64,000 nucleotides of DNA from the NCBI GenBank assembly GCA_030038445.1, contig JASHOW010000025.1, positions 1,281 to 65,280 of the forward strand. Reading direction: 5' to 3'. Numbering within the stretch: the stretch's first letter is position 1; each line of letters starts with the position of its first letter. This document shows positions 23,940-46,463 of this stretch, one piece after another. Origin of the DNA: Nitrosopumilaceae archaeon (lineage in GTDB: Archaea; Thermoproteota; Nitrososphaeria; Nitrososphaerales; Nitrosopumilaceae). A program made the translations under genes and the position numbers. Below the pieces are notes generated by a model. The model worked only from the letters and a program-made list of their open reading frames with translations. It had not been told where the DNA came from and did no database searches.

Positions 23940-25493
23940 TCATATTGGAGACTTCTTAAGCGTTGTGTCAGTTTTTGCAGCTACAGGTCTATAACCTACA
24001 TACTTTTTCCTTCTCACGTGTTTAATGGTATATACGGCTGCCACCGCAACCGCAGCTGGTACAAAGAACAGAGGCATCAGCCAAAAATTCACATCACTAT
24101 TTCTTGCAGGCTCTACCATGGGCATATTCATGTCTGAGTTTGTACCGTTTCCAGGCTTAACTATGGTTGTAAACTGAACATCCTGACCACTATGTGCAAT
24201 GTCAGAAAAATCAAATGTTACGGGGCCAGGATTACTGAATGTAAAATACTGATATGCCCCACCAAACTGTGTAGACTCTTCGATGTGATAGAGTTGCTGT
24301 CCGCCCTGAGTAATAGTAAAGATATAGTGAGCTGGTATTGCCTCGTTTTGTATGTTGTCGTATATTTGGTAAATGAATATTATCTGCTGTCCGGTTGTAA
24401 TGTAATGCGGCTCCCAGTCAAGGTCCAACTCATATGCCCTATCAGGAGTGAATCGTACGACTGGAAACTTCATGATCTGATTTCCGAAAGCGTCAGTGGG
24501 TACAAGTGCTGCTGGTTGTACAATTACATATCCCTGCATCCATGGATGAATCTCACAGAAATACTCGAATGTTCCAGAACGTGTGAACTTTTGAGTCCAA
24601 GACCCTCCAATTGGAATGGTACCGCTGTCAAAGAGGCCATCGGGTTGTCCAACTCCATTGCCAAGAAGACCAGCCCTGCCTACAGAGTGACCGCTTGTTA
24701 CAGTATGGACCTCCTTGTCTTGATTTATCCAAGTTACATTCTGATTTACTCCAATTGTGATAACGGATGGTTCATACCACATGGGAGCAGCAGTATTGTA
24801 GTTTGGATCATATGCCCCATAGGGGATCGTAACTACCTGATTTGTTCCTTTAGGCGCATCTGATACTGCAATGCGTGCACTGTACTTCGCGCCAAGCGTT
24901 ATACTGAGTATCTCGTTTGGCCCCTTCCATTCAGCGGAGCTTATATCAGGAGGACCGGCGCCGTACAGCTGGATCTGAAAGTTGACTGGGCTTACGTTCT
25001 GAAGTGGGTCAGTCACCTGTATGTCTGTACCAGTGACTGCAACTGCAGTCTCGTTTGAGATTATCAAGACGCCGTTGCCTTCCATCTGTTGTGCCCTTAT
25101 CCCATAATTCTCATACGGAATCAGATTTCCATTCGAATCTGTAAATTTTATTTGCAATGCAAGTGACTGGTCTGCCTCTATTGGGGTCGATGTAATGGTA
25201 GCACGAACAGAACCGTCAGATGAGACTGCAGTTCCTTCAATCAGTTGGTGGCTGTTAGTTCCTTGCTGTGCTACTATCTGAGGGCTGTAATACCCTGTCT
25301 GTGCAAAGGCAGATTCCTGCACCAGATACAAACTAAACAGCATGACTATGATCACGCCTCCCAGAAGAGACCTCTTGAGGATCTCATTAGGTCTGACATG
25401 TACAAGCAGGCATAAACCTCTCAATAGACTAATATCATTCTCCCTACGATTTCTTTGTTTTTTGTTCATTGATATATCTACCCCCAATTCCAT
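23940..25493 (-). CDS. Membrane-anchored cupredoxin (plastocyanin-like) protein with N-terminal extension
   Basis: HTVTSG...FDSG...YFCEIHPWM; signal peptide preceded by ~40 extra aa; C-terminal TM. Alternative start at 25469. Confidence 0.85.
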   Translation of the reverse strand: MELGVDISMNKKQRNRRENDISLLRGLCLLVHVRPNEILKRSLLGGVIIVMLFSLYLVQESAFAQTGYYSPQIVAQQGTNSHQLIEGTAVSSDGSVRATITSTPIEADQSLALQIKFTDSNGNLIPYENYGIRAQQMEGNGVLIISNETAVAVTGTDIQVTDPLQNVSPVNFQIQLYGAGPPDISSAEWKGPNEILSITLGAKYSARIAVSDAPKGTNQVVTIPYGAYDPNYNTAAPMWYEPSVITIGVNQNVTWINQDKEVHTVTSGHSVGRAGLLGNGVGQPDGLFDSGTIPIGGSWTQKFTRSGTFEYFCEIHPWMQGYVIVQPAALVPTDAFGNQIMKFPVVRFTPDRAYELDLDWEPHYITTGQQIIFIYQIYDNIQNEAIPAHYIFTITQGGQQLYHIEESTQFGGAYQYFTFSNPGPVTFDFSDIAHSGQDVQFTTIVKPGNGTNSDMNMPMVEPARNSDVNFWLMPLFFVPAAVAVAAVYTIKHVRRKKYVGYRPVAAKTDTTLKKSPI

Positions 25494-25496
25494 TAG

Positions 25497-25558
25497 GTAG
25501 ACATTATTAGCGCCTTCTGGAGCAGTTTAGGAATCATTCCACGGCTAATGTCATAGCC
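25497..25558 (-). ncRNA. Fluoride (crcB) riboswitch aptamer, copy 1
   Basis: Minus strand GGCTATGACATTAGCC...TAAACTGC...GCTAATAATGTCTAC; P1, P2 and the GACATT/AATGTC pseudoknot match the crcB consensus. Confidence 0.9.
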
Positions 25559-25766
25559 TACAGCTTTTCCATCTATGTATCTACTATTAAGGATTTTCAT
25601 GATCCGTTTTTCGACACTTTCTTTACTAACATTAGACAGACAAAGAGGAGTAAAGATACGTGTTTGTTTTCTATCTTGAGTATGAGATCATACAACATAG
25701 AAAAACAATGCTGCAAAAATAAAGAAAAATAAATTATTCAAATTTAAATGAAAACATGTGTTAGAA

Positions 25767-26768
25767 TTAAATTCTAAAGGTTTGAGCAGAATCGTCTTCA
25801 AAAGACATATCGTCCTGAAACAATCTTGTTCGTAACTCTTTGTACCTGTTTCTCACAGTAACTTCAGTTACGCCAGATGCGCCTGCAATATTTTTCTGAG
25901 TTATTTTATTACCATTCATCATACAAGAAAGATACAATGCGGATGCTGCAAAACCAAGCGGATCTTTGCCAACAACAATATTAAATTCAGTTGCGCGTTG
26001 AATAATTTCTAGTGCTTTACGCTTTGTCTTTTCATTTATGTTGGTTTTACTTGCAATTCTTGCTACGCATTTCGTGGGATCTGCTATAGGCATTTTAAGA
26101 TCTAGTTCTCTGAGAATCAACCTGTAACATGCTGCCATCATTTTTTTGTTCACGTTAATTTCCTTTGAAATATCTTTTAGACTACGTGGAGTTTCAGTGT
26201 ATCTACATGCGGCGTAAAGAGAGGCGCCAAGTATCCCAGAAATGCTTCTACCTCTAGTCAGACCTTTATCGACCGCCTTTCTGTAAATATATGCAGCTTG
26301 TTCCAATATAACATACGAAAGTCCTAGTGAGTCTTTTAAGCGATCAAGCAAAGTAAAAGCTATACGAAGGTTTTTACTGTACATAGTATCAGTTTGACTA
26401 CGGCTATCCCACTTTCGTAGTCTTTCAATTGCATATTTCATGGGTGCAGAAAGTGGCCTGCCAAACGCATCTTTATCTACAGTACCAATAATGGTTGCAA
26501 GACCCATGTCATGTTTTGCAAGTGAATAGTGAGAACCGCTTCTAGCATTTCTGACATCATCATTGGACGGAACTCTTTCGGGTCCCAAGTCCTCAATTCT
26601 TTCTATCAGAACAAACCCACAATTATTACAGATTAATTCACCAGTTTCTGCATCAGCTATTATAATTCCTTTTTTACAGAAGAAGCAGCTTCGTTCCGCC
26701 TTGTTAATTTTGGTTAATTGTCTCGTTTTTGGATCTCCGGTGATCTCCATGTCATCATATGATGCCAT
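25767..26768 (-). CDS. tfb: Transcription initiation factor IIB paralog, downstream of a riboswitch
   Basis: C..C...GELICNNCG, HDMGLAT, GKDP, GVTEVTVRNRY. Confidence 0.93.
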   Translation of the reverse strand: MASYDDMEITGDPKTRQLTKINKAERSCFFCKKGIIIADAETGELICNNCGFVLIERIEDLGPERVPSNDDVRNARSGSHYSLAKHDMGLATIIGTVDKDAFGRPLSAPMKYAIERLRKWDSRSQTDTMYSKNLRIAFTLLDRLKDSLGLSYVILEQAAYIYRKAVDKGLTRGRSISGILGASLYAACRYTETPRSLKDISKEINVNKKMMAACYRLILRELDLKMPIADPTKCVARIASKTNINEKTKRKALEIIQRATEFNIVVGKDPLGFAASALYLSCMMNGNKITQKNIAGASGVTEVTVRNRYKELRTRLFQDDMSFEDDSAQTFRI

Positions 26769-26870
26769 TTATCTTACATCCAAGATTAATGCACGATCAA
26801 CATCATCAACAATACAACGGCATTCATCGTCAGATTTATTTTGTGATTTTTTTATCATCATGTCCACCAT
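26769..26870 (-). CDS. Riboswitch leader ORF (33 aa) abutting tfb
   Basis: Manual translation MVDMMIKKSQNKSDDECRCIVDDVDRALILDVR*; TAA is immediately followed by the tfb ATG. Confidence 0.5.
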   Translation of the reverse strand: MVDMMIKKSQNKSDDECRCIVDDVDRALILDVR

Positions 26871-26877
26871 TATGCTG

Positions 26878-26943
26878 GTAGACATTATCAGCATCGCACG
26901 ATGCAGTTAAGGAGCTAGTTACTCCATGGCTAATGCCATAGCC
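26878..26943 (-). ncRNA. Fluoride riboswitch aptamer, copy 2
   Basis: GGCTATGGCATTAGCC...TTAACTGCATCGTGCGATGCTGATAATGTCTAC. Confidence 0.9.
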
Positions 26944-27051
26944 GCGTTCCATACTCAGGTGACAATATTAAATCTTATGAATGCATACGATCTTCGTCAT
27001 GATTACAAAATAGTATCATCGGTTTTTTAGTCGGAATTACGAAATAAGGTT

Positions 27052-27855
27052 TTGATGCTACAAATAGATGCAATATTTTCTGATTATGATGGTACGCTAA
27101 GCCCTTTTGCCGTAAACCGAGATAATGCACTAGTTCCGAGGCCATTGTACAAAACCCTTAGCATCGTTTCAAAAAAAATTCCTTTTTGTATCATCACTAC
27201 AAAGACTGTAAATTACATACAAGACAAGATAGAATTTTGTAAAGGAGTAGCAGGTATTGGAGGTTTGGAGATAAGCATTGGCGCCAAGATGATTTATCCA
27301 AGTGTATCTAGCCATACAAGAAAATCAATTCTTACTGTCTTTGATTTTGCAAGATCAGTCATGCATGATATGAAAGATGTGTTGTTGGAAGAAAAGAAAA
27401 CTGCAGGAGGAGAACTGCTAGGCTTTACAGTAGACTGGAGATTATCAAAAAATTGGGATTCATATAAAGAAGTAGTAAGACCACTGATACAAAAATCTAA
27501 GAGAGACGGTTTGTTTGTTCTAACCTATAGAGACCACCCATTTTTTGATGTATATGTTAAAAAACCAGACAAGGGAAAGGCACTGATTAAACTCAAAAAA
27601 GAACTACGCATAAATGGAAACATACTCTATCTTGGAGATTCGGAGAACGATAGCACGGCCTTCGAAAAAAGTGGCGTATCCATAGGAATTACACGAGAGG
27701 AAGTCAAACCACTCCTAAACTGCGAGTATCTTTTACCATATGATAATCTTAATGCTGCTCTACGAACACTCGTTAAAAACAACATGATATTTGATCCTGT
27801 GTTATTAAATTTAAAAAGAAATTCCACTTATGATTACACAAGCGATAAACAATAG
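27052..27855 (+). CDS. HAD-superfamily (IIB-like) phosphatase
   Basis: DYDGTL motif I, DKGKAL, GDSEND motif IV. Confidence 0.88.
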   Translation: MMLQIDAIFSDYDGTLSPFAVNRDNALVPRPLYKTLSIVSKKIPFCIITTKTVNYIQDKIEFCKGVAGIGGLEISIGAKMIYPSVSSHTRKSILTVFDFARSVMHDMKDVLLEEKKTAGGELLGFTVDWRLSKNWDSYKEVVRPLIQKSKRDGLFVLTYRDHPFFDVYVKKPDKGKALIKLKKELRINGNILYLGDSENDSTAFEKSGVSIGITREEVKPLLNCEYLLPYDNLNAALRTLVKNNMIFDPVLLNLKRNSTYDYTSDKQ

Positions 27856-27935
27856 CAAGTAAAAGTACGCCTGATAAAAATAAGAAAGATCAAAGATTGT
27901 ACCTACTATCATAATACTAGTAACTGAAGAAAAAA

Positions 27936-28577
27936 CTAGCCAAACATGACCCATCGTGTTAGTGAACGACGGCGCCTTCTTCGAGAAGAGGCCTCATCTC
28001 TTTTGAAAAAGAGCATAAAATTACTTGTTCTAGTATTTTTTATTGGAGCGTCTAGTTTCGGATAATTTGAATATTTGAAGCTAGAACAAGACAATGAGAA
28101 TACTTTGGCAAATAAATTTGGAACATTGGCGCTTCTCCATCTCACACATATTTCTCTTCCATTATTAATATGTCCAAATAATTCATGTGGATCGATGACT
28201 GAAATTTCTGGTTGGTCATATTCTAAAGACATAGAAGCTTGAGATATCGTTTCCACTCCAGGTAATTTTCCTGATTCATCAGTAAGAAATCTTGATAGAA
28301 ATGCTATAACGTGGTCTGAAAAAGATTTGTTCAAACTTTGTGCTTCTACATGATCATACTTGTTACAAAGATCGGGAAGTTCAGTATAATGAATTACTCT
28401 CCATGCAGATTCTTTATCTGTTTTATTTGACAGGCATGATATCAAATAATCAGAATCTCCTCTCCATGCAAGCCAGAGCTTTTTAGCTTCATCAAGTGCT
28501 ATCTCGGTTGGAAGTTTGAAATGGGCATAAATTCGTGTAGCCTGTGTCTCAAACTTTTTTTCCGAGTCTATGATCAT
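27936..28577 (-). CDS. Hypothetical protein
   Basis: 213 aa ORF with no recognised motif; Arg-rich tail. Confidence 0.5.
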   Translation of the reverse strand: MIIDSEKKFETQATRIYAHFKLPTEIALDEAKKLWLAWRGDSDYLISCLSNKTDKESAWRVIHYTELPDLCNKYDHVEAQSLNKSFSDHVIAFLSRFLTDESGKLPGVETISQASMSLEYDQPEISVIDPHELFGHINNGREICVRWRSANVPNLFAKVFSLSCSSFKYSNYPKLDAPIKNTRTSNFMLFFKRDEASSRRRRRRSLTRWVMFG

Positions 28578-28829
28578 ATACTACAAAATATTTATTTATT
28601 AGATTTAGGAACTTTTCTTAAATTTTTTTAATCTTCAAGTCATGAGTGTTCTATGAGTTAATATTGCCTAATCTCGTTTTTTCAAAATATTAACAGATGT
28701 TTTCAAGATGAAAAATGTAGAAGTATCTACAAAAATGAGAATCATACGACAAAGAAGAGAGAACCATCAAACTAAACAATGAGAAACAGAAGTGTTATAA
28801 GATTTTCAATTCTTAAATCATATAGAAAC

Positions 28830-30068
28830 ATGCCCAAGATAACCTCAATTAGTGGAACAGTTGTTTACAATAGCAGAGGGCACAAGACAATCGAGGTTAG
28901 TGTAATTTCTGACAACAAGTATCTTGGAAGAGTTTGTGCGCCGTCAGGAGCAAGTGTAGGTAAACATGAAGCAATAAATTTTCCAGACAATAATCCTCAA
29001 AAAAGCCTCGATATATTACGATCAAACGAAAAAAAGTTCATAGGGCTTGATCCCTCTGACTTGAAATCAATTCATGAGACATTGAGAAAAATAGATTCGA
29101 CTACAAATTATTCAGAGATCGGTGGGGCCGTTGCATTTTCTCTGACTATTGCATCAACAGAGTCAGCGGCAAGATCAGAAGGAGTTCCATTATTCAAGAT
29201 ATTGACCAAAGACGCTCATCTTAGACTACCATTTCCATTAGGCAATATTTTAGGCGGTGGTGCTCACGCCGGTATAGGAACCCCAGACATTCAAGAGATA
29301 TTGGTTTGTGCCATAGGATCAAAAACAATACGTGAATCTGCAGAAACAAATTTTTTGATACATCAAGAGCTTGGAAAGATGTTAGAGAGACATGATGCCA
29401 AGTTTACAAGAGGGAGGGGGGATGAAGGGGCATGGGCACCAAGAATAAACAATGACAAGGCTGTAGAATACTGTGCAGATACATGTGAAAAGTTGGGATA
29501 CACACTGGGTAAAGAAGTCTCATTGGGAATAGATTTTGCATCTTCGGTATTATGGAACGAGAAAAGGGGAAAATACGTCTATTCTAGACAAGGCATAGAA
29601 AGATCTCCAGAACAACAAATAGAATTTGTTTCAGAGATGATAAAAAAATACAAACTTGTTTGTGTGGAAGATCCAGTTCACGAAGACGCATTTGAAGACA
29701 TGGCAGAATTAACAAAAAAATTTCCGCGTATTCTTATAATTGGGGACGACATTGTGGTTACAAACCAAACACGACTGTCAAAGGCCATAAATACAAAATC
29801 ATGCAATGCTGTAATACTAAAGGTAAATCAGGCGGGAAGCCTGTATGATGCACTAGAATTTGCAAAATTGGCAAATAAAAACAACATGAAATTGATCACC
29901 TCACACAGATCTGGCGAGTCAACAGATAGCCACATATCTCACATAGGTCTTGCCACAAAATCAAATATGCTCAAAGTAGGTGTTGTGGGAGGAGAAAGAG
30001 TGGCCAAGATCAACGAATTGATTCGCATTTCTGAAGAAAATAACATACACAACATGGCAAATATTTGA
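28830..30068 (+). CDS. eno: Enolase (probably an extra copy)
   Basis: NSRG..T, APSGAS.G.HEA, GDEG, KVNQ.G, SHRSGES; start placed at MPKI. Confidence 0.95.
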   Translation: MPKITSISGTVVYNSRGHKTIEVSVISDNKYLGRVCAPSGASVGKHEAINFPDNNPQKSLDILRSNEKKFIGLDPSDLKSIHETLRKIDSTTNYSEIGGAVAFSLTIASTESAARSEGVPLFKILTKDAHLRLPFPLGNILGGGAHAGIGTPDIQEILVCAIGSKTIRESAETNFLIHQELGKMLERHDAKFTRGRGDEGAWAPRINNDKAVEYCADTCEKLGYTLGKEVSLGIDFASSVLWNEKRGKYVYSRQGIERSPEQQIEFVSEMIKKYKLVCVEDPVHEDAFEDMAELTKKFPRILIIGDDIVVTNQTRLSKAINTKSCNAVILKVNQAGSLYDALEFAKLANKNNMKLITSHRSGESTDSHISHIGLATKSNMLKVGVVGGERVAKINELIRISEENNIHNMANI

Positions 30069-30163
30069 TGAATCATTTACAATTAAGACGAACTATCAAA
30101 CATTAATGAACATATAGGATCTTGATATCTAAAAAAACGTTTTTGAATAATGGTGAGTGCTCT

Positions 30164-30427
30164 TTACCAATACGCGCTCTCGCTTTCAGTTGCTGTATTT
30201 TTTCTATCCATAGTGACATATTTTCTTATCTCATCAAGATCTTTGAATATTCCCTCAGGGGCAAAAACTGAAGGAGTCTTTGTAGTTGGGAGATCACCGC
30301 AGCAGCTTTCAGCAAATTTCCTCACATCATACTCCACATACTCAATCCCATTGCTTTTCAGAAGCATCATAGCTTGCTGAGATTTTTCCGAACCATCTAC
30401 CAAAAGAATTGGTTTGCGCTGCATCAT
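30164..30427 (-). CDS. Glutaredoxin-like small protein
   Basis: LL..NGIEY.EYDV...TPSVF pattern; no CxxC in the canonical position. Confidence 0.5.
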   Translation of the reverse strand: MMQRKPILLVDGSEKSQQAMMLLKSNGIEYVEYDVRKFAESCCGDLPTTKTPSVFAPEGIFKDLDEIRKYVTMDRKNTATESESAYW

Positions 30428-30662
30428 AAGAATTAAAGGATCTACAAAAATTAAGTCTTGTTAGAGTTAGTCACAGATGAGATATCATCTCCTAGTGTAT
30501 TGTACTATAGGTGATTATCTGTACCCAATAGAGAATGGAGGTATTTTCATATAATATTAATGATATACAGGACTTCTAACACAATTATTTAAAACTCAAC
30601 CCTCATTATCTGTGGCATACTTTTAACAGAATTTAATAATTGGAGGAATATGAGGTATCTCA

Positions 30663-31247
30663 ATGACCAAAGGTGAAGTTCCAAACATCGTAGCCCTCGA
30701 AGTCCTAAAAAAGAACGGTGTGAATGTAGACAAACTCAAAGAACTACTGACTAAAGGAGTAGGTGCAGAGTTTACGACATACTACTATTATACCATACTC
30801 CGAATGCACTGTACAGGACTTGAGGGAGAAGGAATAAAGGAAATCGTAGAAGATGCTAGAATAGAGGACAGAAATCACTTTGAAGCAATGGTACCCAGAC
30901 TGTACGAATTGGGTGGAAGCCTACCAAGAGACATTAGAAAGTTTGCTGACCAAGCAGGTTGTCCAGATGCTTACCTACCAGACAACTGGGAAGATATCAA
31001 TTCCATCCTGAAGGTATTGCTAGAGGCAGAACAATGTGCAATACGTTCATGGGGTGAGGTCTGTGATATGACTGCAGGGAAGGACCCAAGAACATATGAC
31101 ATTGCCCAAAGAATAATGCAGGAAGAAGTCGAACACGAAGCATGGTTCATAGAATTGTTATCAAAGAGACCATCAGGACACTTTAGAAGAAAGTTTGCTG
31201 GACAGTCTCCGCACACTGGATCGCAAGGCGGTCTGATACACCTCTAA
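30663..31247 (+). CDS. dps: DPS-like (DpsL) ferritin-superfamily protein
   Basis: [39 protein letters not shown]. Confidence 0.92.
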
Positions 31248-31283
31248 GAATTAAATATTTTCCAATTTTTTTAATTTTTAGTC

Positions 31284-31661: not shown

Positions 31662-31942
31662 TTTCAGAAGCACATAGTGCAAGAAAGACGTAAATTGAAT
31701 AATCTTTTTCAAATCGTTTGATCTTAATTTTAACAAGCATTGTGCACCCATAAGGTAGAACAGTGTAGCAAATATGCAACCATAAACAAGAAACTGTTCA
31801 CAGTCTTACCGTCACGATGTAGAAATACGACCATCGCGCGCAGACAATAAACAGATAATCCACTCGCAGGTGTTGCATTTCTGTTAAGTCAATTAGCTTT
31901 GTTCATAATGTGGCATCTAATCTTAAAATCATACAATCATTT

Positions 31943-32176
31943 TCATATTGACAGACTGTATACTGCAACCCTCTTTCGATTTTTCCCAATAACATATCTT
32001 ATTTTCACGTATTTTAATTCGGCCAGTCTTTTAACTAATCTATATACCGTGCTTAGTGGAATGTCTGTTTTTTCACTGATAGTATTGATAGTTTTTTCAT
32101 TACTTCTTAATGATTCTATAATAAGTTTGTAGTATCTGCCTTGTATTCCAATATTTTTATCATTTTTATTTATCAT
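31943..32176 (-). CDS. Small winged-helix (HTH) regulator directly downstream of a riboswitch
   Basis: KTI..ISEKTDIPLSTVYR.V..L. Confidence 0.75.
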   Translation of the reverse strand: MINKNDKNIGIQGRYYKLIIESLRSNEKTINTISEKTDIPLSTVYRLVKRLAELKYVKIRYVIGKNRKRVAVYSLSI

Positions 32177-32193
32177 GTCTACTAATCCTCCAT

Positions 32194-32256
32194 GTAGACA
32201 TTATCAGCATCGCGCGATGCAGTTTAGGAGCTTATTCCATGGCTAATGCCATAGCC
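32194..32256 (-). ncRNA. Fluoride riboswitch aptamer, copy 3
   Basis: GGCTATGGCATTAGCCATGGAATAAGCTCCTAAACTGCATCGCGCGATGCTGATAATGTCTAC. Confidence 0.92.
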
Positions 32257-32367
32257 AACAGGTTAAAAATCCGAAATAGTAGATTTAAACTTTCAGACAT
32301 GTATACGAAATGGAGTTTCAAACCATAATCAATGTAAAATCCTAAATCAGAGAAATTTTAATTAGAT

Positions 32368-32793: not shown

Positions 32794-32795
32794 AA

Positions 32796-34832: not shown

Positions 34833-34836
34833 GGAT

Positions 34837-35619: not shown

Positions 35620-35628
35620 TTTTTCACC

Positions 35629-36966: not shown

Positions 36967-36983
36967 TTTGCACTCTCCATTTT

Positions 36984-39108: not shown

Positions 39109-39109
39109 T

Positions 39110-40075
39110 TTACGTCACTTTTCCTCCTAAAAATAGCGCAAGAATGGAAAGTAATGCTAAACTAAAGGAAATTGAGAGAAAATCCAATATTTTGAAGAGG
39201 CGCAGCTTGGCAAATGTTTCTTCTATTATAACTATAATAACAATCAGGGCAAGCAGTTTAAAAAACAGGGTACCAACTGAATAAAGTGCGCCAGTTACAC
39301 TTACATCCCCAGACATCCACCAGGGAATAACGAATACATTAAGAAACACAGCCATCAAAAGAAATTGTTTCATGTATCCTCCCCATCTTGATATGGCAAG
39401 CAGTTTGCCGGAATATTCTATTACCTTCGCATCATCTATCATGCCAAATTCTACAAGACCTGAGCTTTCTACTGGGAGTCTTCCTGTTTCAACTAAGATT
39501 AGCATGAAGAAGGCAGCCATAACAAGGATATGAGTAGCAGAAAGATACCAAGAGGCAGAACTTGCCAATAGATTGTTTGTCGTATACGGATTGTTTGTAC
39601 CTGTAATCATGGCAACTGCAATGAAGATCATGATTAGTGTTGGTTCCGCCAATGCGGTAAATGAAGCGCTACGGCTTGCGCCCATTGTTGAATAATTAGT
39701 ACGAGCATCTATTGCGGCTATAATACTAATTACACCTGCAAACCCAAACATGAGAGCTCCTCCAAGTAGATCCAACAATATACCATATGGAAGAGGATAT
39801 GGTGTCACGATAGGAACTACTAGAGAGATTACTAGATATGCCACAAATGAAACTAGGGGAGCTATGACAAAGAACGATGATGATTTTTCAGGTACAACAA
39901 CTTCTTTTCTTAGAAGTTTAGATAGATCATAATACGGTTGAAAGATTGATGGGCCATGTTTGGATTCAATCATGGATTTTAAACGATTTATGATTCCAGC
40001 AATTAAAGGAGAAAGAAACAACACTGTACCAATTTGAATTATATTTATCAGTTGAAGCGTGATTGGGTCACTCAT
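39110..40075 (-). CDS. hyfC: HyfC/HycD/NuoH-like membrane subunit
   Basis: GPSIFQPYYDL.KL..KE, GASR, ETGRLPV, EYSG. Confidence 0.88.
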   Translation of the reverse strand: MSDPITLQLINIIQIGTVLFLSPLIAGIINRLKSMIESKHGPSIFQPYYDLSKLLRKEVVVPEKSSSFFVIAPLVSFVAYLVISLVVPIVTPYPLPYGILLDLLGGALMFGFAGVISIIAAIDARTNYSTMGASRSASFTALAEPTLIMIFIAVAMITGTNNPYTTNNLLASSASWYLSATHILVMAAFFMLILVETGRLPVESSGLVEFGMIDDAKVIEYSGKLLAISRWGGYMKQFLLMAVFLNVFVIPWWMSGDVSVTGALYSVGTLFFKLLALIVIIVIIEETFAKLRLFKILDFLSISFSLALLSILALFLGGKVT

Positions 40076-40257
40076 TTTTTGTCACCTTTTTTAAAAGAAT
40101 GATTTATTCTATATGCGACAATATATTTTGAAGTAGGTTGCTCAATAATAAAATCATCGTATATTGAATTCAATCTCTCGTTATAATCCAATATACTATA
40201 GTCAAGCATCCATGTCTCCAGTATTTTTTGATTTTGGTTCACTTTTGATCTTTCCAC
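40072..40257 (-). CDS. Riboswitch leader ORF (61 aa) coupled to hyfC
   Basis: GTG start 5 nt after the aptamer; ATGA overlap with hyfC. Confidence 0.5.
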   Translation of the reverse strand: MERSKVNQNQKILETWMLDYSILDYNERLNSIYDDFIIEQPTSKYIVAYRINHSFKKGDKK

Positions 40258-40262
40258 TATCT

Positions 40263-40322
40263 GGAGACATTATCATCCCTTTAGGGCAGTTTAGACGTAT
40301 AGTCAAGGCGAATGTCATCGCC
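40263..40322 (-). ncRNA. Fluoride riboswitch aptamer, copy 4
   Basis: GGCGATGACATTCGCC...TAAACTGCCCTAAAGGGATGATAATGTCTCC; canonical GGCG/CGCC P1. Confidence 0.88.
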
Positions 40323-40542
40323 CTATTGAATTAGTAATGGTGCCTAGCTAAGATTAAAAATGTTGCTCTGAAAGAATTCATTAACTAATCTGATCCTATT
40401 TGTCATTCATCCTTGTTTAAGTATATAACTCATTTTTCTCATAAGGTACGAAAGGTTTTCCGGCGATTTTATCCGCGTCCATATCACACATAACTCTCAG
40501 ATTTAAAAGATAGATTTAACATGTTGTAAACCAACTTTAGTA

Positions 40543-40890
40543 GTGTATTTTATGACTAATGACCCAAATGTTTTAAAGAACCAGACAAAAATGTGGCGTC
40601 TTTTGATCCAGTTTAGGAAAACCGATAAGATTGGAGATGCATTATTAAGAACCGAGTTGATGGCATTATTCAAAAAAGCTGACATATCTGGTGCAACCGA
40701 ATGGTCTGGAATAGGCGGGTATGGTAAACATGGAAAATACTACCAACAACAAGAAGGAATATCAATGGATGCTCCAATGATGTTAGAAGTAATTGACGAA
40801 GTTTCTAAGATCAAGATAATTTTACCAATGCTCAAGGATATTGTAAATGATCATGGATTGATTAGTATCCACGAAGTCATTGTAGTTTAA
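40543..40890 (+). CDS. Second DUF190 PII-like protein
   Basis: ISGAT.W.G.GGYG, S.DAPMMLEVID. Confidence 0.85.
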   Translation: MYFMTNDPNVLKNQTKMWRLLIQFRKTDKIGDALLRTELMALFKKADISGATEWSGIGGYGKHGKYYQQQEGISMDAPMMLEVIDEVSKIKIILPMLKDIVNDHGLISIHEVIVV

Positions 40891-41016
40891 AGGGACTTTT
40901 TATTGAGAAATTAAGAGAGCGCCTATCGTACAAATCGTAGATGTACGATATCATTTACAGATATGTTTTCTTACTAGTTGAAAAACAGGTGATTTTATAA
41001 TGACATAAAATTATCG

Positions 41017-41613
41017 TCAAGATTTGTTTGCATGTATGTCATCAAGAGAAAAGCCATGTCGAAAAGTCTCATTTTTTTCTGCAAGAGATAAGAGAAGTTT
41101 CTTATCATCTTCTTCTAATCTGATAAAACAATCTTTAGCACCACTACCCATACCATACGCAAAATCAGGCGATAGGTAAGAAAAATCAAAGATAATTTTC
41201 CTCATATTTGATTTTAGTTTGTAGAAATTATAGCCTATGGCATATCCCATCTTGGTTGCAATGAAGGAGTCATTTTTTGCAAGTTCAATCAAACTTAACA
41301 TTGATTCTATGGTAATCTTTCTCATGTGGTTTCCAAGACTGCTGCAGAATTTGTTTGCCACTTCATGATTTGATTTGCACAGATCTAATACGATTTTTTT
41401 TGTCTGATCACGTGCATTTGCAAACTTCCATCCTGCCCCTTGTCCAAACGCTCCTGCAAATACTTTGTTTGTATCTATCAATCCTATCACGCTACGTCGT
41501 ATTCCCTCTGATAACCTATCAAAGATAGACCCATAATAGAATCCAAGTTCATAATCTAATTCAGGATCAAATCCTGCAGTTACAAGTAACGAACCTTTTG
41601 AATTTTTATTCAT
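41017..41613 (-). CDS. Helical-repeat hypothetical protein
   Basis: About four repeats of F/IA..(L/M)G..xG..F..(L). Confidence 0.55.
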   Translation of the reverse strand: MNKNSKGSLLVTAGFDPELDYELGFYYGSIFDRLSEGIRRSVIGLIDTNKVFAGAFGQGAGWKFANARDQTKKIVLDLCKSNHEVANKFCSSLGNHMRKITIESMLSLIELAKNDSFIATKMGYAIGYNFYKLKSNMRKIIFDFSYLSPDFAYGMGSGAKDCFIRLEEDDKKLLLSLAEKNETFRHGFSLDDIHANKS

Positions 41614-41623
41614 ATCTAGTCAT

Positions 41624-41764
41624 TTATTGTTTGGCATATTGATCAAGGTTGAAAATACTTTCAGAACCGCAGCTTGGGCAATTCCACACTATCCTAGTTC
41701 CTATATACTTTGAATATACAACGCCACAATGTGCACATACTCTAAGGCTACTGGTCTTAACCAT
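41624..41764 (-). CDS. Small Zn-ribbon protein (46 aa, not in the ORF track)
   Basis: MVKTSSLRVCAHCGVVYSKYIGTRIVWNCPSCGSESIFNLDQYAKQ*; overlaps the ferredoxin stop. Confidence 0.65.
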   Translation of the reverse strand: MVKTSSLRVCAHCGVVYSKYIGTRIVWNCPSCGSESIFNLDQYAKQ

Positions 41765-42257
41765 CTTTGTATGCCTCTGCTGCTTTTTTATGAACTTCTA
41801 AATTAGCTTGGTCTACCTTGATTGCCTGTGTTGGACACACTGTAACACATGCCATACACCATATACAGTCGTGTTCTCTTACGGGCTCTGATTTATCAGT
41901 AAAATCTTTACGCTCATCTCTTACACAGCTACCTGTTCCAGCGCTAGTACCATTGATCATCTGTTCTGCAGGAATATCATTTTCTGTTCTGTACCACTGA
42001 TAGACCTGAACAGGGCATACATCTATACAACCTCCATCTGCAATACATGAATCCCAATCAACTGCTACAGAAGTACCATGCACACCCAAAGGAACAAGCC
42101 GTTCTCCCCTTTTTTCATAGTCAGCCATTACCTTAGGTTCGGAAGCCGCCTCTGCTTCTTTTCCAGGGCCCCAAACAAAATAGAAATTTTTTCCATTATC
42201 ATTATTGCGTTTCCCTATCACACGATAATTATCTGGAAATTTTAGATCAATTGGCAT
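41757..42257 (-). CDS. Dicluster ferredoxin (thaumarchaeal type)
   Basis: CIADGGCIDVCP and CIWCMACVTVCP. Confidence 0.9.
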   Translation of the reverse strand: MPIDLKFPDNYRVIGKRNNDNGKNFYFVWGPGKEAEAASEPKVMADYEKRGERLVPLGVHGTSVAVDWDSCIADGGCIDVCPVQVYQWYRTENDIPAEQMINGTSAGTGSCVRDERKDFTDKSEPVREHDCIWCMACVTVCPTQAIKVDQANLEVHKKAAEAYKDG

Positions 42258-42328
42258 TATTCTTTGCCTCCAAAAACTTGTTGTTAACTTCTTTTACTGT
42301 AACACAGAATACAGCGGTTTCATATTCG

Positions 42329-42847
42329 TTATTTTGCATTGTGTTTCATCTCACTTTGGTTAAATTTTATTTTGATTAAATTTGATATTAAAAATGCTAG
42401 TTGAAATACGTTAAGATCTTTTTGTACAAAGACAGATAGAATTTCCTCGCTTATGGGAAAATCTATTGATACCAATTTGTCTGAGTACGATATAGTGAAG
42501 TTTATTGCACCAAAGTATTTGTCGTATGCTTTTTTCATCCTATTTCCTAATGCAATCTGTGCAAGTAGGATTTCTTGTTCTTTCGGATCTAAGATTTCCC
42601 ATTGTATTTTTTTATTTTGTACAAGCACTGTTCCTTTGAAATCTATTATTCCAGCAAATATTATTTTATGATCAAGGTTGATAATTTCATTACAGATAGA
42701 TTCCAGCATATCGGTTTGAATCAATTCGGTTCTTTGTTTGATTGAGTTAATACTATTGTCATGTGCTATAGTTGAAGATACTAGGCCGTTATGACAGTCC
42801 ATACTGGTTTTTCTCCTCTCTATTCTTGATTTTGATTTTTTATTCAT
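42329..42847 (-). CDS. Roadblock/longin-like thaumarchaeal domain protein with ~46 aa N-terminal extension
   Basis: C.EI..LD..I.FAGIID..G...D..FG pattern; directly downstream of a riboswitch. Confidence 0.6.
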   Translation of the reverse strand: MNKKSKSRIERRKTSMDCHNGLVSSTIAHDNSINSIKQRTELIQTDMLESICNEIINLDHKIIFAGIIDFKGTVLVQNKKIQWEILDPKEQEILLAQIALGNRMKKAYDKYFGAINFTISYSDKLVSIDFPISEEILSVFVQKDLNVFQLAFLISNLIKIKFNQSEMKHNAK

Positions 42848-42867
42848 TGGTCTACCTGCTTTGCATT

Positions 42868-42965
42868 GGTAGACATTATCAGCTTCTTCTAGAGCAGTTT
42901 AGGATTCTCCATGGCTAATGTCCTAGCCTAATCTAATATATCATCATTCACATTTTTAAAGTTTT
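42868..42965. repeat. 98-bp direct repeat (promoter plus riboswitch), first copy
   Basis: Matches 46366-46463 with one mismatch (42951 C versus 46449 T). Confidence 0.9.
42869..42928 (-). ncRNA. Fluoride riboswitch aptamer, copy 5 (conserved U7 replaced by G)
   Basis: GGCTAGGACATTAGCC...TAAACTGCTCTAGAAGAAGCTGATAATGTCTAC. Confidence 0.82.
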
Positions 42966-43190
42966 TTGTCATTGTAACAATTCGATTTGAAATACTGAAT
43001 TCTTTTCCATTGTTATTGTAATAACTAAGATCTAGGGTAGATAAAACAAGAAAAGAACCAAATGGTAAACTATTCATCTAGACATAGATCAATTCTTTGA
43101 TATTGGTATTAGAGAATCTACATAAACGGCATGATGTGGCAATACAAAAAACCATGAAAAATGATTTTTTGGTTAGTAAAATTCATCGTC

Positions 43191-43697
43191 TTAATGATGT
43201 GCCCCAAATTTTTCCATGCCTCTACTGTAGAAATCAAGAAACGCCTCGAAATCTACAGGCTCGTCTAAAATTTCTGCCATCTTTATTACTTTATCTACTA
43301 CAACAGCACACTGTTGTCTGAAATTATTCTCATTAAATTCTATTACAGTCAATTTTGTCTTTATACTTTGTATTTCCTCTAGATTATCATTAACTATCAG
43401 TATAACTTTCAATCCTTTTCCTTGTGCATAGCCTATTTCCTGATTAATCAGACTTGAATTAAGAAAATCCGAAGTAAGAACCGCAATAAAGCAGATGGAT
43501 AAGCGAATCATATCTTTTATTTCGTCAAAAATAAAATTACCATAAGATTCACTATTTGACATATAAGCCCCAAATCCTTTTTCCCCGAGCATATGTTCTA
43601 AAACAGACGCTTTTTCACAATCTTCTTTGGCATAACATACAAATACTTTAAATTTATGGTGCGGTTTCTCTGGTTTTCCTGTATTACCTTGACTCAA
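43191..43697 (-). CDS. Stand-alone TIR-domain protein
   Basis: KVFVCYA.ED, FIAVLT.DF..S...NQEIGYA with the putative catalytic Glu. Confidence 0.8.
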   Translation of the reverse strand: MSQGNTGKPEKPHHKFKVFVCYAKEDCEKASVLEHMLGEKGFGAYMSNSESYGNFIFDEIKDMIRLSICFIAVLTSDFLNSSLINQEIGYAQGKGLKVILIVNDNLEEIQSIKTKLTVIEFNENNFRQQCAVVVDKVIKMAEILDEPVDFEAFLDFYSRGMEKFGAHH

Positions 43698-43801
43698 TTT
43701 TTATCTCCTCTGTTACAATTAGACTTAGCATTTGGCAAGTGCGATCTATAGTCACAGCTAAGTTTTTTGTAAGAAAAATTTGTACCCAGTTTGTATTTCA
43801 T
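43694..43801 (-). CDS. Riboswitch leader ORF (35 aa) coupled to the TIR gene
   Basis: MKYKLGTNFSYKKLSCDYRSHLPNAKSNCNRGDKN*; TTGA overlap with the TIR start. Confidence 0.45.
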   Translation of the reverse strand: MKYKLGTNFSYKKLSCDYRSHLPNAKSNCNRGDKN

Positions 43802-43827
43802 TTGTCTATCTACCTAAATCCCATTCG

Positions 43828-43892
43828 GCAGACATCATCAGCACCTTTTCGGGAGCGGTTTTGGCTTTTACACCAAGGCTAATGTCATAGCC
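43828..43892 (-). ncRNA. Fluoride riboswitch aptamer, copy 6
   Basis: GGCTATGACATTAGCC...AAAACCGCTCCCGAAAAGGTGCTGATGATGTCTGC. Confidence 0.88.
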
Positions 43893-44190
43893 ACTTTTTA
43901 TTCGCTAGATGATTTTTTAAGTTTTGCTATATGTCAGAATTTGTTGCGATTTCATTTTGAAATCATGGGTTTTGATCAGAGCTGCAAACTAATCTTTTAA
44001 TTCTACAGATAGAAGTAATATTTTCTAACTAGGATGGAGAACCTATAACGTATAGAAAAGATCTATAGTGGAAAAAGTCCAGGAGACAGAATCGTATTCC
44101 ACGTAAGAGGAGAACTAAACAGTTTATGTCAGTAAGATGGACTAGTTCTCAGATAAATGTTCATCAAGACAAAAATAACTTGGTTTCGAA

Positions 44191-45360
44191 TTATTTTGTT
44201 TTAGCAAGTATTACTGCTCCAGCCAAGCTAAATAGTGCCGCGAATCCAAAACCATACGATGGAGAAAATACAGTCCACAACACGCCTACTATGGTACTTG
44301 ATACAAAATCACCTAATCCATTCACAGTGCCTAGAACGCCATAACCTATTGTAACGGATTTCTTTTCTAACATACCTCCCGATACGGCTCCTTCAAGTGC
44401 GTCTACTCCAGATACATATAGTCCTGAAATTGAAAAGAGTACGACAAATGTCCAAATATCTGGATGTAGGAAAATAAAGCCCACAAAACATATAGTAGCT
44501 AGTAGATATGTTGTGACTAGAACTCTCTTCCTTCCCATTCTGTCTCCAAGATAGCCTAACGGGAAAGATGCGGCTGCATAGACCACATTTCTTACAATGT
44601 AAAAAGATGCAGACAATATTGATGCTTTCAATAAACCAAATTCTGGGGTTAGACTAGTTGTAGCATAGAGTATAAGTAATGTAGGGGCAAAATCACCTAC
44701 TCCGAATATACCCACCCCAAGCAAAAAGTTTTTGAAATTCTTTGGTAGATCTCGCATACTTGAGAAGAATCTCACATTATCATTTTTTTTGGCAAATTTA
44801 TCTTTGACAAAAAATGCAAAGAGAAGTGCGGCAAATACTGCAGGTATGACAGAATACCACATGATCTCTCGGTAATTAATAAGTGGAAGTATTACAAGAG
44901 CGGCTACTGGTCCACATATAGCACCAAGTGTATCGCCTGCTCTGTGTAACCCAAATGCCTTACCAAGATCGTTTGCATCAACAGACTCTACCAGAATTGC
45001 ATCGCGTGGAGGACCTCTAATTCCCCTCCCAAACCATCCAAGTACACGCCCAAATAGTACTTGCAAGAAACCTGAGGAAGTCGCCATAATTATTGGCATC
45101 AAGGATGTCAATAGATAACCCAAGACACTGAACTGTTTCTTCTTCCCTACCTTGTCAGAATAATAGCCAGATCCCATCTTAGTGAAGCTTGATGCTGCAT
45201 CAGATGCTCCCTCTATCAATCCCAAGGCAGCTGCACCTATGCCCATCGTTGCGAGAAAAGCCGGCAGTATAACAGTGACTGCCTCATGACTAAAGTCACT
45301 TAAGAAACTTGTGGCACTCATAGATGCCACATTCCTATTAAGCCAGTTTGTTTTTTTCAT
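44191..45360 (-). CDS. MFS transporter
   Basis: Twelve TM helices, G..SDKVG.K, GRGIRGPPRDA, G.LGDRMGRK. Confidence 0.92.
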   Translation of the reverse strand: MKKTNWLNRNVASMSATSFLSDFSHEAVTVILPAFLATMGIGAAALGLIEGASDAASSFTKMGSGYYSDKVGKKKQFSVLGYLLTSLMPIIMATSSGFLQVLFGRVLGWFGRGIRGPPRDAILVESVDANDLGKAFGLHRAGDTLGAICGPVAALVILPLINYREIMWYSVIPAVFAALLFAFFVKDKFAKKNDNVRFFSSMRDLPKNFKNFLLGVGIFGVGDFAPTLLILYATTSLTPEFGLLKASILSASFYIVRNVVYAAASFPLGYLGDRMGRKRVLVTTYLLATICFVGFIFLHPDIWTFVVLFSISGLYVSGVDALEGAVSGGMLEKKSVTIGYGVLGTVNGLGDFVSSTIVGVLWTVFSPSYGFGFAALFSLAGAVILAKTK

Positions 45361-45520
45361 AATTGATTATTACTGTCACTTGTTGTAGAATCACGCGAAA
45401 CAACACAAAAACCATTCGCGATATGTTAATGGAGAAACGAGTATTCCTCAAAGTACGTGATTCGTCCAAAGTGTATCTCATTTTTACTATATTTTTATCC
45501 AACATGTACCTAGATTCCAT
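45338..45520 (-). CDS. Riboswitch leader ORF (60 aa) overlapping the MFS start
   Basis: ATG 3 nt after the aptamer; 23-nt overlap with the MFS gene. Confidence 0.45.
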   Translation of the reverse strand: MESRYMLDKNIVKMRYTLDESRTLRNTRFSINISRMVFVLFRVILQQVTVIINYEKNKLA

Positions 45521-45523
45521 CAG

Positions 45524-45591
45524 ATAGACATTATTAGCAGAGCATCTTTGCGAGCAGTTTAGGAGCTTATTCCATGGCTAATGCCATAGCC
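45524..45591 (-). ncRNA. Fluoride riboswitch aptamer, copy 7
   Basis: GGCTATGGCATTAGCCATGGAATAAGCTCCTAAACTGC...GCTAATAATGTCTAT; first 38 nt identical to copy 3. Confidence 0.88.
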
Positions 45592-45702
45592 TACTTAAGT
45601 AGCTTTTAGCATTACTTTTAATCTTTCTTTTTTGTAAATTTTTGTCCAGATTATGTGTGTATTAATTCCATGTCTTTCCAAAGATCCAGATTAAGAAAAC
45701 TG

Positions 45703-45903
45703 CTATGAATCTTCCCATTGAATCTCATCTAATATTTGGTGGATCTCTTTTTCATAAGAGAGAGTTAACTTTCCATTCATTTTCAGTACAAAGTTTTCTG
45801 CCCAGCTTTGTGCTGCCCACAAAGCAGCCTCTTTTCCCAATTTAGGATGTTTTGTACGATAATATTCATATTGTTTTCTTATTCCTTTTTCAAGGTCTTT
45901 CAT
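45703..45903 (-). CDS. Small hypothetical protein
   Basis: ATGA overlap with the AsnC-like gene. Confidence 0.55.
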   Translation of the reverse strand: MKDLEKGIRKQYEYYRTKHPKLGKEAALWAAQSWAENFVLKMNGKLTLSYEKEIHQILDEIQWEDS

Positions 45904-46166
45904 ATCATCGTCTTACCTTCTTGTTCTTCGTTGACCAACATGGTTGTAGTTGAGGTTATCTTGTCGATTTTTCTAATTTCTTTGAGAATGTCTTTCATAT
46001 CATTCATGCTATTGCATTCTGCTCTTACGACTATATCATATACGCCGTTTACTCCTTGTATTTCGTATTTTACAGATTGATCATTCCTGTTGATTCCTTT
46101 GATTGTTCTGATTATTTCAACCTCCGAACCCGGATTATTAGTTAATAAGATGTACACAACTGTCAT
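45900..46166 (-). CDS. Lrp/AsnC ligand-binding (RAM) domain protein
   Basis: YILL...PG.E.E, V.GVYDIVV, IRKID.I.ST.TM; start placed at MTVVY. Confidence 0.8.
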   Translation of the reverse strand: MTVVYILLTNNPGSEVEIIRTIKGINRNDQSVKYEIQGVNGVYDIVVRAECNSMNDMKDILKEIRKIDKITSTTTMLVNEEQEGKTMI

Positions 46167-46363
46167 GTTTTTCCCCTTAGAAATGTGCTCAAGATGGACT
46201 TTGAAGGCTGTTTGAACGTACAACAAAAATAAGACTCGAGATGTTTGCTATGTAGTTTGATTTGTGAAAAGACATAACTTTTTAATGATAAAATATTTTG
46301 ATTACATGTTCCTCCTACTATGCTTGAATTTAGTTCTTTCATGCTATCTACCCATTTTTTCAT
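46163..46363 (-). CDS. Riboswitch leader ORF (66 aa) coupled to the AsnC-like gene
   Basis: ATG 3 nt after the aptamer; ATGA overlap at 46163-46166. Confidence 0.5.
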   Translation of the reverse strand: MKKWVDSMKELNSSIVGGTCNQNILSLKSYVFSQIKLHSKHLESYFCCTFKQPSKSILSTFLRGKT

Positions 46364-46365
46364 TC

Positions 46366-46463
46366 GGTAGACATTATCAGCTTCTTCTAGAGCAGTTTAG
46401 GATTCTCCATGGCTAATGTCCTAGCCTAATCTAATATATCATCATTCATATTTTTAAAGTTTT
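46366..46463. repeat. 98-bp direct repeat (promoter plus riboswitch), second copy
   Basis: 97/98 identical to 42868-42965. Confidence 0.9.
46367..46426 (-). ncRNA. Fluoride riboswitch aptamer, copy 8 (identical to copy 5)
   Basis: Same sequence as 42869-42928. Confidence 0.82.

Follow-up and report, generated by a model that had tools for sequence, protein, structure and literature searches.

This study concerns eight fluoride aptamers (RF01734, located with cmscan between positions 25491 and 46435, every one on the minus strand) in a single window of archaeal DNA, the window being the whole 64,000-nucleotide stretch that was analysed (GenBank assembly GCA_030038445.1, contig JASHOW010000025.1, positions 1,281 to 65,280). 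In seven of the eight copies, the 3' strand of the aptamer pseudoknot, (A)UGUCUACC, is followed by its own complement, GGUAGACA(U), and the two form a hairpin of 7–10 bp at a start codon. We consider it likely that each such leader works as a fluoride-induced translational ON switch, with the hairpin occluding the initiation region in the absence of the ligand; its ligand dependence, its direction and translation as its output are what we infer from comparing sequences. An initial annotation of this DNA had proposed that fluoride binding frees the initiation site, and the comparative evidence, as we read it, all fits that proposal.

The host is a metagenome-assembled genome (MAG) of Nitrosotalea, an acidophilic ammonia oxidizer from acid soil that belongs to the family Nitrosopumilaceae (1.49 Mb in 130 contigs, 89.7% complete). 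Fluoride is more toxic, as HF, at low pH, and the presence of eight switches in an acidophile fits this. Four of the aptamers score 36.4–40.2 bits, above the gathering score of the RF01734 model (34 bits), and the other four score below it (28.4–32.5 bits, E-values 1.4e-5 to 3e-4). A search of the whole MAG gave no RF01734 match beyond these eight. All eight aptamers have a TATA-like element (TTTAAA, TTAAAA or TTTAAT) 19–28 nt upstream of the model start, and a TFB gene is present in the window as well, both of which mark the host as archaeal. When we scanned species-representative genomes with an exact pattern taken from the P1 hairpin and tail of the window aptamers, matches were found in Nitrososphaeria only, including Ca. 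Nitrosotalea devanaterra, N. bavarica, Nitrosotenuis, Nitrosarchaeum, Nitrosopumilus and some Nitrososphaera MAGs.

A Hairpin Built on the Pseudoknot Strand

For each copy we took as the 5' arm the 12 nt starting at the A before UGUC, and sought the best ungapped helix in the next 45–48 nt, counting a G-U pair as half. The null distribution came from 2000 dinucleotide shuffles of the same downstream 45–48 nt. The helix is significant in copies 1–6 and 8 (see the table for individual values), while the best helix of copy 7, 6 bp long, is reached by 1460 of the 2000 shuffles and is not significant. A repeat of the shuffle run gave similar values for all copies. In local folds the hairpin is both the minimum free energy (MFE) structure and the centroid structure, at −8.9 to −14.9 kcal/mol. 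Fold z-scores are −2.7 to −5.8 for copies 1, 2, 3, 5, 6 and 8, −1.7 for copy 4, which has a long loop, and −0.1 for copy 7; when the complete leader is folded, 7/8 copies have the hairpin within their MFE structure. In all seven copies with a significant hairpin, the distance from the end of the 3' arm to the AUG is −2 to +5 nt.

The complementary pairs quoted in the initial annotation for copies 1, 2, 3, 5, 6 and 8 are found in the sequence exactly as given. The same annotation described the pairing as weaker in copies 4 and 7. This is true of copy 7, whose 3' arm has a 2-nt gap in the alignment relative to GGUAGACAUG; it is not true of copy 4, where a perfect 10-bp helix closes across a 39-nt loop. 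We rejected copy 7 as a working switch on the shuffles, the z-score and a modelled free-energy difference of 0.3 kcal/mol (see below).

Conservation and Compensatory Changes

Are these hairpins kept in related genomes? We searched 41 relatives and 151 genomes of the class and obtained 64 non-redundant expression platforms, 47 of them from Nitrosopumilaceae. Within the family the helix has a p-value of 0.05 or less in 45/47 platforms and of 0.01 or less in 41/47, and the AUG is −2 to +5 nt from the arm end in 44 of 46. An independent set from the pattern scan (species representatives, non-redundant, n = 88) has a helix score of at least 7 in 88/88 switches, with the AUG −2 to +6 nt from the arm end in 84 of them. 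We then aligned 42 platforms with MAFFT, blind to structure. Both arms align, and RNAalifold finds on this alignment an 8-bp helix, UGUCUACC/GGUAGACA, with four pairs doubly changed. For an 11-bp version of the helix, 83.9% of the cells are paired, compared to 24–39% when the 3' partner is slid by 1–3 columns, and six pairs change on both sides, which is reached by 0/500 shuffles. Hairpin loop length varies between 6 and 39 nt, with no conservation of the loops from genus to genus. The counts being among kin, it is the double changes and the free loops that, judged from the alignment, make up the real comparative evidence.

Several changes are compensatory. The arms of copy 4 read CUCCAG/CUGGAG, where the orthologous leader of a hydrogenase-like operon in another genome of the genus (G180) has CUACC/GGUAG; further compensatory arm changes are ACA/UGU (G128) and ACUCA/UGAGU (G180f), and changes in the pseudoknot core are seen in G159, G081 and G074. 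Copies 5 and 8 are instructive in another way. Their promoter-aptamer modules (42868–42965 and 46366–46463) are near-identical, with one mismatch, and the identity stops exactly at the last base of the hairpin 5' arm. Past this point the two copies are unrelated, yet each keeps GGUAGA(C/U), at a different distance.

These observations bear on whether the complement has any role in switching. It might be a by-product, either inherited with a duplicated promoter-aptamer-start cassette or serving to stabilize the mRNA 5' end. The copies are paralogous, two modules are nearly the same, and most of the relatives are close kin, for which identity alone is weak proof. A by-product, however, gives no reason for two unrelated continuations to retain the 3' arm after the shared sequence of copies 5 and 8 has ended, for the compensatory and pseudoknot-core changes listed above, or for a loop that varies freely in length and sequence. 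The helix is, in addition, always on the one strand whose availability depends on the ligand. We regard a by-product as quite improbable.

Competition with the Pseudoknot

In the window the pseudoknot is formed by the P1 loop, GACAU or GGCAU, and the 3' tail AUGUC, with 5/5 pairs in all eight copies. The relatives tabulated for the pseudoknot also have 5/5 pairs in all but two, and those two keep 4/5. The 5' arm of the hairpin is made of the pseudoknot 3' strand AUGUC and the UACC that follows (7/8 copies). Because the same AUGUC strand is used by both, the hairpin and the pseudoknot cannot fully coexist.

Three strands covary across the families of the class, namely the P1 loop strand, the pseudoknot 3' strand and the downstream arm. 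Nitrosopumilaceae have GACAU in the loop, AUGUC in the 3' strand and GACA(U/A) in the downstream arm; the corresponding strands are GGCAU, AUGCC and GGCAU in families f15 and f9, GGCGU, ACGCC and GGCGU in f21, and GGAGU, ACUCC and GGAGa in a member of f18. Since the three strands change together, the downstream arm is a mimic of the P1 loop strand, and such mimicry is what a ligand-gated competitor should show. The earlier suggestion that the hairpin excludes the pseudoknot is thus backed both by the shared strand and by the covariation across families.

Masked Start Codons and Leader Open Reading Frames

To judge from the reading frames, the masked AUG is a genuine start codon. It directly begins crcB (MKGIEL..., MKIIEL...) in Nitrosotenuis, Nitrosopumilus, Nitrosarchaeum and other genera, often in the form GGUAGACAUG, and the arm then takes in the A and U of the codon. 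Two kinds of frame begin with it in the Nitrosotalea relatives, that of a membrane-anchored cupredoxin-like protein and a short open reading frame (ORF) of 18–34 amino acids whose stop overlaps the crcB start as ATGA. The switch of the relatives is therefore associated with the fluoride-resistance gene directly or through a crcB-coupled leader ORF. Within the window, the AUG directly opens a cupredoxin-domain ORF in copy 1, a 77 amino acid winged-helix protein in copy 3 and a DUF6659 protein in copy 5; in copies 2, 4, 6, 7 and 8 it opens leader ORFs of 30–59 amino acids that abut or overlap the next gene. Junctions as exact as these would make sense only if translation of the leader matters.

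The codons after the AUG are rich in A. The A content of codons 2–6 is 47–80% in the seven hairpin copies and averages 67% in the family, compared to a mean of 36% over the genes of the genome, and 83% of family platforms reach at least 60% A in these codons versus 7% of genome genes. The peptides differ while the A-richness stays, which points to selection for an unstructured landing site and not for the peptide. Together with the position of the AUG, this agrees with the initial annotation, which had the hairpin overlapping or just preceding an AUG followed by A-rich codons.

Another AUG is found directly 3' of CUACC (CCUAAUGG, the genus consensus) in copies 1, 3, 5, 6, 7 and 8 (e.g., 25493–25491 and 46363–46361), and a comparable in-frame AUG occurs in copy 2, deeper within the hairpin loop. 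We rejected the AUG after CUACC as the true start, as it is out of frame or stopped in most relatives. Within the genus it is conserved, and it begins mini-ORFs that either terminate within or beside the 3' arm or continue in frame as far as the main AUG (copies 1, 7 and 8, and the AUG of copy 2), an arrangement that would suit an OFF switch or a dual-function element, in which fluoride favours a repressive fold or the upstream AUG competes with the main one. We find this highly improbable: as the hairpin needs bases that the pseudoknot also uses, the ligand can only disfavour the hairpin; the gene controlled in the relatives is crcB, which must be induced; and the upstream AUG is not conserved outside the genus. 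To our knowledge, moreover, the fluoride switches characterised so far are all ON switches.

Is a Shine-Dalgarno Sequence Hidden?

The hairpin had also been described as covering a Shine-Dalgarno (SD)-like element, GGUAG or GGUGG. The element does lie within the arm region, but comparison with 16S rRNA makes the SD label weak. The 16S rRNAs of the genus end in GGAUCACCUCCU, with which only the (A/G)GGU of the arm can pair, and GGUAG matches this tail over 3–4 nt only. The duplex of the genus consensus with the 16S tail is predicted at −4.3 kcal/mol, the 41st percentile of genes and no better than the average gene. Predicted tail duplexes are −11.9 kcal/mol for copy 1 (GGGGGU, the best SD match among the eight), −9.3 for copy 3 and −8.3 for copy 5, and ordinary for the rest. 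A real GGAG(G) is present in copy 3 and in the crcB leaders of Nitrosotenuis, in the hairpin loop and not in the stem.

The genome as a whole uses SD sequences sparsely. Ideal-SD four-mers peak approximately two-fold at −15 to −9, and a 5-nt SD match precedes 10.9% of genes, the control window giving 4.8%; enrichment is 3.3–3.7 fold for GGAG and GAGG, 1.8 fold for AGGU and 1.1 fold for GGGU. Genome genes also have a TATA-like peak −33 to −28 relative to the ATG, which suggests that many mRNAs are leaderless. Given the rank of the consensus duplex and this sparse use, we do not uphold GGUAG as an SD sequence in general. With the GGAG(G) in the loop and the match of GGUAG so poor, we describe the device as occlusion of the initiation region and start codon, in which SD masking would be at most a contributing feature of some copies.

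Termination Signals and Modelled Accessibility

Archaeal intrinsic termination requires an oligo-T run. On the minus strand no hairpin-plus-T site follows any of the window aptamers, as expected from the initial annotation, which had noted the lack of a U-tract; among the eight copies, a T5 run within 40 nt past the hairpin occurs in copy 6 only. Runs of T5 or longer within 40 nt are found in 5/47 family platforms, four of the five being Phe-Leu codons of crcB, and runs of A5 or longer occur past the hairpin of family platforms at 34 per kb. We rejected a bacterial-type terminator, there being no hairpin-plus-T site and an A-rich sequence after the helix.

The hairpin could still act mainly on transcript abundance, through factor-dependent premature termination (polarity of the aCPSF1/FttA type) or faster decay brought on by an untranslated or structured leader in the OFF state, in which case fluoride would raise the amount of mRNA and not initiation as such. 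Termination in archaea needs no hairpin. Bacterial translational riboswitches are said, in work by Bastet et al. in 2017, often to trigger Rho-dependent termination as well. In Thermococcus kodakarensis, RNA-seq showed the 86-nt riboswitch as a discrete RNA (PMC4247193). We think an effect mainly on abundance unlikely, however. Oligo-T is missing after the hairpin except in the few platforms just mentioned; the tight placement of the arm relative to the AUG suits a translational device and is unneeded by a terminator; the exact ATGA and TTGA junctions of the leader ORFs likewise suit a translational device; and any polarity would follow from the translational block.

We modelled accessibility with ViennaRNA partition functions for each leader, using as a proxy for the bound state a leader whose pseudoknot strands are made unavailable. 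Opening positions −12 to +3 costs 6.0–14.1 kcal/mol with the pseudoknot strands free and 2.4–6.2 kcal/mol with them locked. The difference is 3.1–7.9 kcal/mol in seven copies and 0.3 kcal/mol in copy 7.

A Model for the Switch

The translational ON switch that we favour would operate as follows. Transcription would start approximately 20–28 nt downstream of the TATA-like box, near the point where the aptamer begins. As long as fluoride is absent, the pseudoknot 3' strand (A)UGUC and the adjoining UACC would pair with the downstream complement GGUAGACA(U), burying roughly positions −12 to −1 and, in the GACAUG forms, also the first two bases of the AUG, and the small ribosomal subunit could not load. 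With fluoride and Mg2+, the pseudoknot between the P1-loop GACAU and AUGUC would be locked, probably co-transcriptionally before the 3' arm is made, leaving this arm single-stranded and the AUG and its A-rich, unstructured first codons open. Where a short leader ORF is present, the signal would be relayed to the real gene by the overlap of stop and start (ATGA, TTGA or TAAATG). The ON direction fits crcB being a fluoride exporter.

Several points weigh against this model. Copy 7 is without a working helix. Most of the sequences compared are close kin, so that the conservation counts overstate independence, and the double changes amount to only 14 cells in six pairs. In the distant families f9, f18, f22 and f23 of the class, the ungapped helix is significant in 1/14 platforms; the hairpin architecture is thus not universal there, and we rejected the same ungapped anti-pseudoknot helix as a class-wide feature. 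The 16S duplex of the genus consensus is, as said, unremarkable. In energies of secondary structure, which ignore the tertiary structure of the aptamer, the hairpins (−9 to −15 kcal/mol) are at face value stronger than a 5-bp pseudoknot and ligand binding combined. With the hairpin stronger on paper, the switch must be kinetic or rest on tertiary stabilisation; the folding decision is probably made co-transcriptionally, by analogy with the bacterial switches that have been studied (PMC11077080). Finally, there may be a secondary effect on transcript level, by polarity or decay.

Relation to Known Fluoride Switches

Translational fluoride switches with sequestering hairpins are known in bacteria, and those of Burkholderia pseudomallei and Pseudomonas syringae have been used as translational controls (PMC12667848, preprint). 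The P. syringae eriC and B. pseudomallei switches have the same aptamer family as the Nitrosotalea copies and, like them, a sequestering hairpin on the pseudoknot 3' strand that hides the ribosome-binding region, with no terminator. The differences are in the host and in the output. Nitrosotalea is an archaeon that uses SD sequences sparsely and seems to have many leaderless mRNAs; its pseudoknot strand is AUGUC instead of the bacterial ACUCC, with the complement GACAU(G) at or over the start codon and not on a GGAG SD; and, unlike in the bacterial switches, the output often passes through an ATGA-coupled leader ORF. In the crcB switch of Bacillus cereus, the 5' strand of the platform likewise overlaps the pseudoknot 3' strand, and the ligand blocks strand invasion (PMC11077080). 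The B. cereus platform, however, is an intrinsic terminator with a U-tract, whereas in Nitrosotalea there is no U-tract, the codons are A-rich and the helix abuts the AUG.

Among archaea, just one natural riboswitch, the fluoride switch of T. kodakarensis TK0513 (Speed et al. 2018), is reported to have been tested in vivo, and later papers call it presumably or simply translational (PMC8241225, PMC11077080). With one archaeal case tested, the initial annotation was fair in calling the mechanism poorly characterised in archaea. Like the window copies, the TK0513 switch is an archaeal fluoride switch that precedes a gene other than crcB (PMC4247193). T. kodakarensis is a euryarchaeal hyperthermophile with one copy, compared here by its published description; Nitrosotalea has eight copies in 21 kb and a covarying helix conserved across its family. 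A census of 2017 lists one riboswitch in Thaumarchaeota (PMC5473149), and our literature search found no paper linking Nitrosotalea with fluoride riboswitches.

The mechanism itself is of a known and expected kind, and should be a moderate surprise to a riboswitch specialist. What appears to be new, from the sequences compared here, is the well-supported occurrence and conservation of a probable translational hairpin in Nitrosopumilaceae, its start-codon-centred form, and its eight uses within one 21-kb island. The platform architecture has comparative support for a whole archaeal family, with 88 instances, and there are cultured hosts (Ca. Nitrosotalea devanaterra, Ca. Nitrosotenuis chungbukensis and Nitrosopumilus sp. 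b1). With the helix on the start codon and SD sequences rarely used, these leaders could serve as a probe of leadered-mRNA initiation in thaumarchaea, and they are candidates for use as inducible-expression parts in ammonia-oxidising archaea, a group short of genetic tools.

It is tempting to speculate, although we hold the idea only tentatively and would sooner doubt it than accept it, that the switch has been retuned in Nitrosopumilaceae from anti-SD mimicry (ACUCC, similar to 16S CCUCC, trapping GGAG) to start-codon capture (AUGUC trapping GACAU(G)), as a portable cassette relayed by termination-reinitiation. If true, start-codon capture would match a lineage with mostly leaderless or SD-poor mRNAs. 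The TATA box, aptamer, hairpin, AUG and A-rich codons would together be a portable translational cassette, which Nitrosotalea would have put before unrelated genes (TFB, TIR, cupredoxin, hydrogenase-like complex and MFS genes) and whose output would be relayed by termination-reinitiation at ATGA-type junctions. It would then be a natural model in which to study how archaea carry out and control SD-independent internal initiation.

Features of the Window and Further Observations

Aptamers, expression platforms and leader ORFs of the eight fluoride switches, in window coordinates; shuffle counts are out of 2000
Feature	Position	Strand	Description
Copy 1 aptamer	25491..25567	-	RF01734, 31.1 bits, E 4e-5; P1 loop GACAU pairs AUGUC
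Copy 1 platform	25467..25504	-	5' arm 25504-25495 (AUGUCUACCU), 3' arm 25483-25474 (GGGUAGAUAU), AUG 25469-25467; 10 bp incl. 2 G-U, 11-nt loop; -11.4 kcal/mol, z -2.7; 7 shuffles
Copy 2 aptamer	26872..26952	-	RF01734, 38.6 bits
Copy 2 platform	26859..26885	-	5' arm 26885-26876, 3' arm 26869-26860 (UGGUGGACAU), AUG 26861-26859, arm/AUG overlap 2 nt; 10 bp, 6-nt loop; -14.9 kcal/mol, z -5.8; 2 shuffles
Copy 2 leader ORF	26769..26861	-	30 amino acids; ends TAAATG at TFB start
Copy 3 aptamer	32188..32265	-	RF01734, 36.4 bits
Copy 3 platform	32174..32201	-	5' arm 32201-32194 (AUGUCUAC), 3' arm 32182-32175 (GUAGACAU), AUG 32176-32174 overlapping arm; 8 bp, 11-nt loop containing GGAGG; -8.9 kcal/mol, z -3.2; 33 shuffles
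Copy 4 aptamer	40257..40331	-	RF01734, 38.5 bits; tail CUCCAG in place of CUACC
Copy 4 platform	40207..40270	-	5' arm 40270-40261 (AUGUCUCCAG), 3' arm 40221-40212 (CUGGAGACAU), AUGs 40213-40211 and 40209-40207; perfect 10 bp, 39-nt loop; -13.9 kcal/mol; 2 shuffles
Copy 4 leader ORF	40072..40209	-	45 amino acids, from second AUG; ATGA overlap with first gene of hydrogenase/complex-I-like operon
Copy 5 aptamer	42863..42937	-	RF01734, 32.5 bits, E 1.4e-5
Copy 5 platform	42845..42874	-	5' arm 42874-42868 (GUCUACC), 3' arm 42856-42850 (GGUAGAC), AUG 42847-42845; 7 bp and inner 3-bp stem; -11.1 kcal/mol, z -4.1; 13 shuffles
Copy 6 aptamer	43822..43901	-	RF01734, 40.2 bits
Copy 6 platform	43799..43834	-	5' arm 43834-43827 (UGUCUGCC), 3' arm 43814-43807 (GGUAGAUA), AUG 43801-43799; 8 bp incl. 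2 G-U; -9.8 kcal/mol, z -3.1; 48 shuffles
Copy 6 leader ORF	43694..43801	-	35 amino acids; stop overlaps TTG start of TIR protein (TTGA)
Copy 7 aptamer	45518..45600	-	RF01734, 28.4 bits, E 3e-4; weakest, unusual P2
Copy 7 degenerate platform	45503..45532	-	AAUGU 45532-45528, ACAUG 45507-45503, AUG 45505-45503
Copy 7 leader ORF	45338..45505	-	23-nt overlap with MFS transporter
Copy 8 aptamer	46361..46435	-	RF01734, 32.2 bits, E 1.8e-5
Copy 8 platform	46340..46373	-	5' arm 46373-46366 (UGUCUACC), 3' arm 46352-46345 (GGUAGAUA), AUG 46342-46340; 8 bp incl. 1 G-U; -9.6 kcal/mol, z -3.8; 38 shuffles
Copy 8 leader ORF	46163..46342	-	59 amino acids; ATGA overlap with AsnC-type ligand-domain gene

A small additional hairpin, UGGAAUGAUUCC for example, separates P1 from the AAAC/P2 segment in all eight aptamers (e.g., 25530–25541). 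It is an insertion relative to the Rfam model and is kept in the Nitrosopumilaceae relatives.

The only crcB gene of the genome (22885–23274, minus strand) is without an aptamer of its own; it shares the strand of copy 1 and is found 2.2 kb downstream of that copy. Upstream of crcB are a cupredoxin gene, a winged-helix gene that is a paralogue of the copy 3 gene, and a 95 amino acid ORF (intervals 23277–23564 and 23561–23812). The N-terminus of the last resembles the copy 6 TIR protein, and the ORF is possibly a remnant. A T6 run after the cupredoxin stop makes co-transcription uncertain.

A second genome of the genus, the G180 of the comparison above (JASHNR010000001.1, contig positions 54369–73392), has seven fluoride switches within approximately 19 kb, so a multi-switch island is not unique to the window MAG. 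They precede partly orthologous genes: a hydrogenase-like operon, TFB, an AsnC-domain protein and a cupredoxin protein. Elsewhere in the genus, most genomes carry between one and three fluoride switches.

In the distant families, several platforms of f9, f18, f22 and f23 have GAGG or GGUG right after the tail. Switches L038, L049, L040, L043 and L066 (f21, f22 and f23), which failed the ungapped helix test, are on other genes, some with TTG starts, and here too the tail is immediately followed by GAGG or GGUG; among the genes behind distant-family switches are those for a Cys-rich protein that has the motif SKDI..DCPIC and for a protein beginning LEYKSLLGS.

Two weak matches to C/D-box snoRNA models (E-values 5.8–7.6; 46515–46580 and 47063–47089, minus strand), in which UGAUGA and CUGA boxes are present, may represent archaeal C/D sRNAs; one is in the gap between copy 8 and a PEBP-family gene, and the other is inside the PEBP-family ORF.

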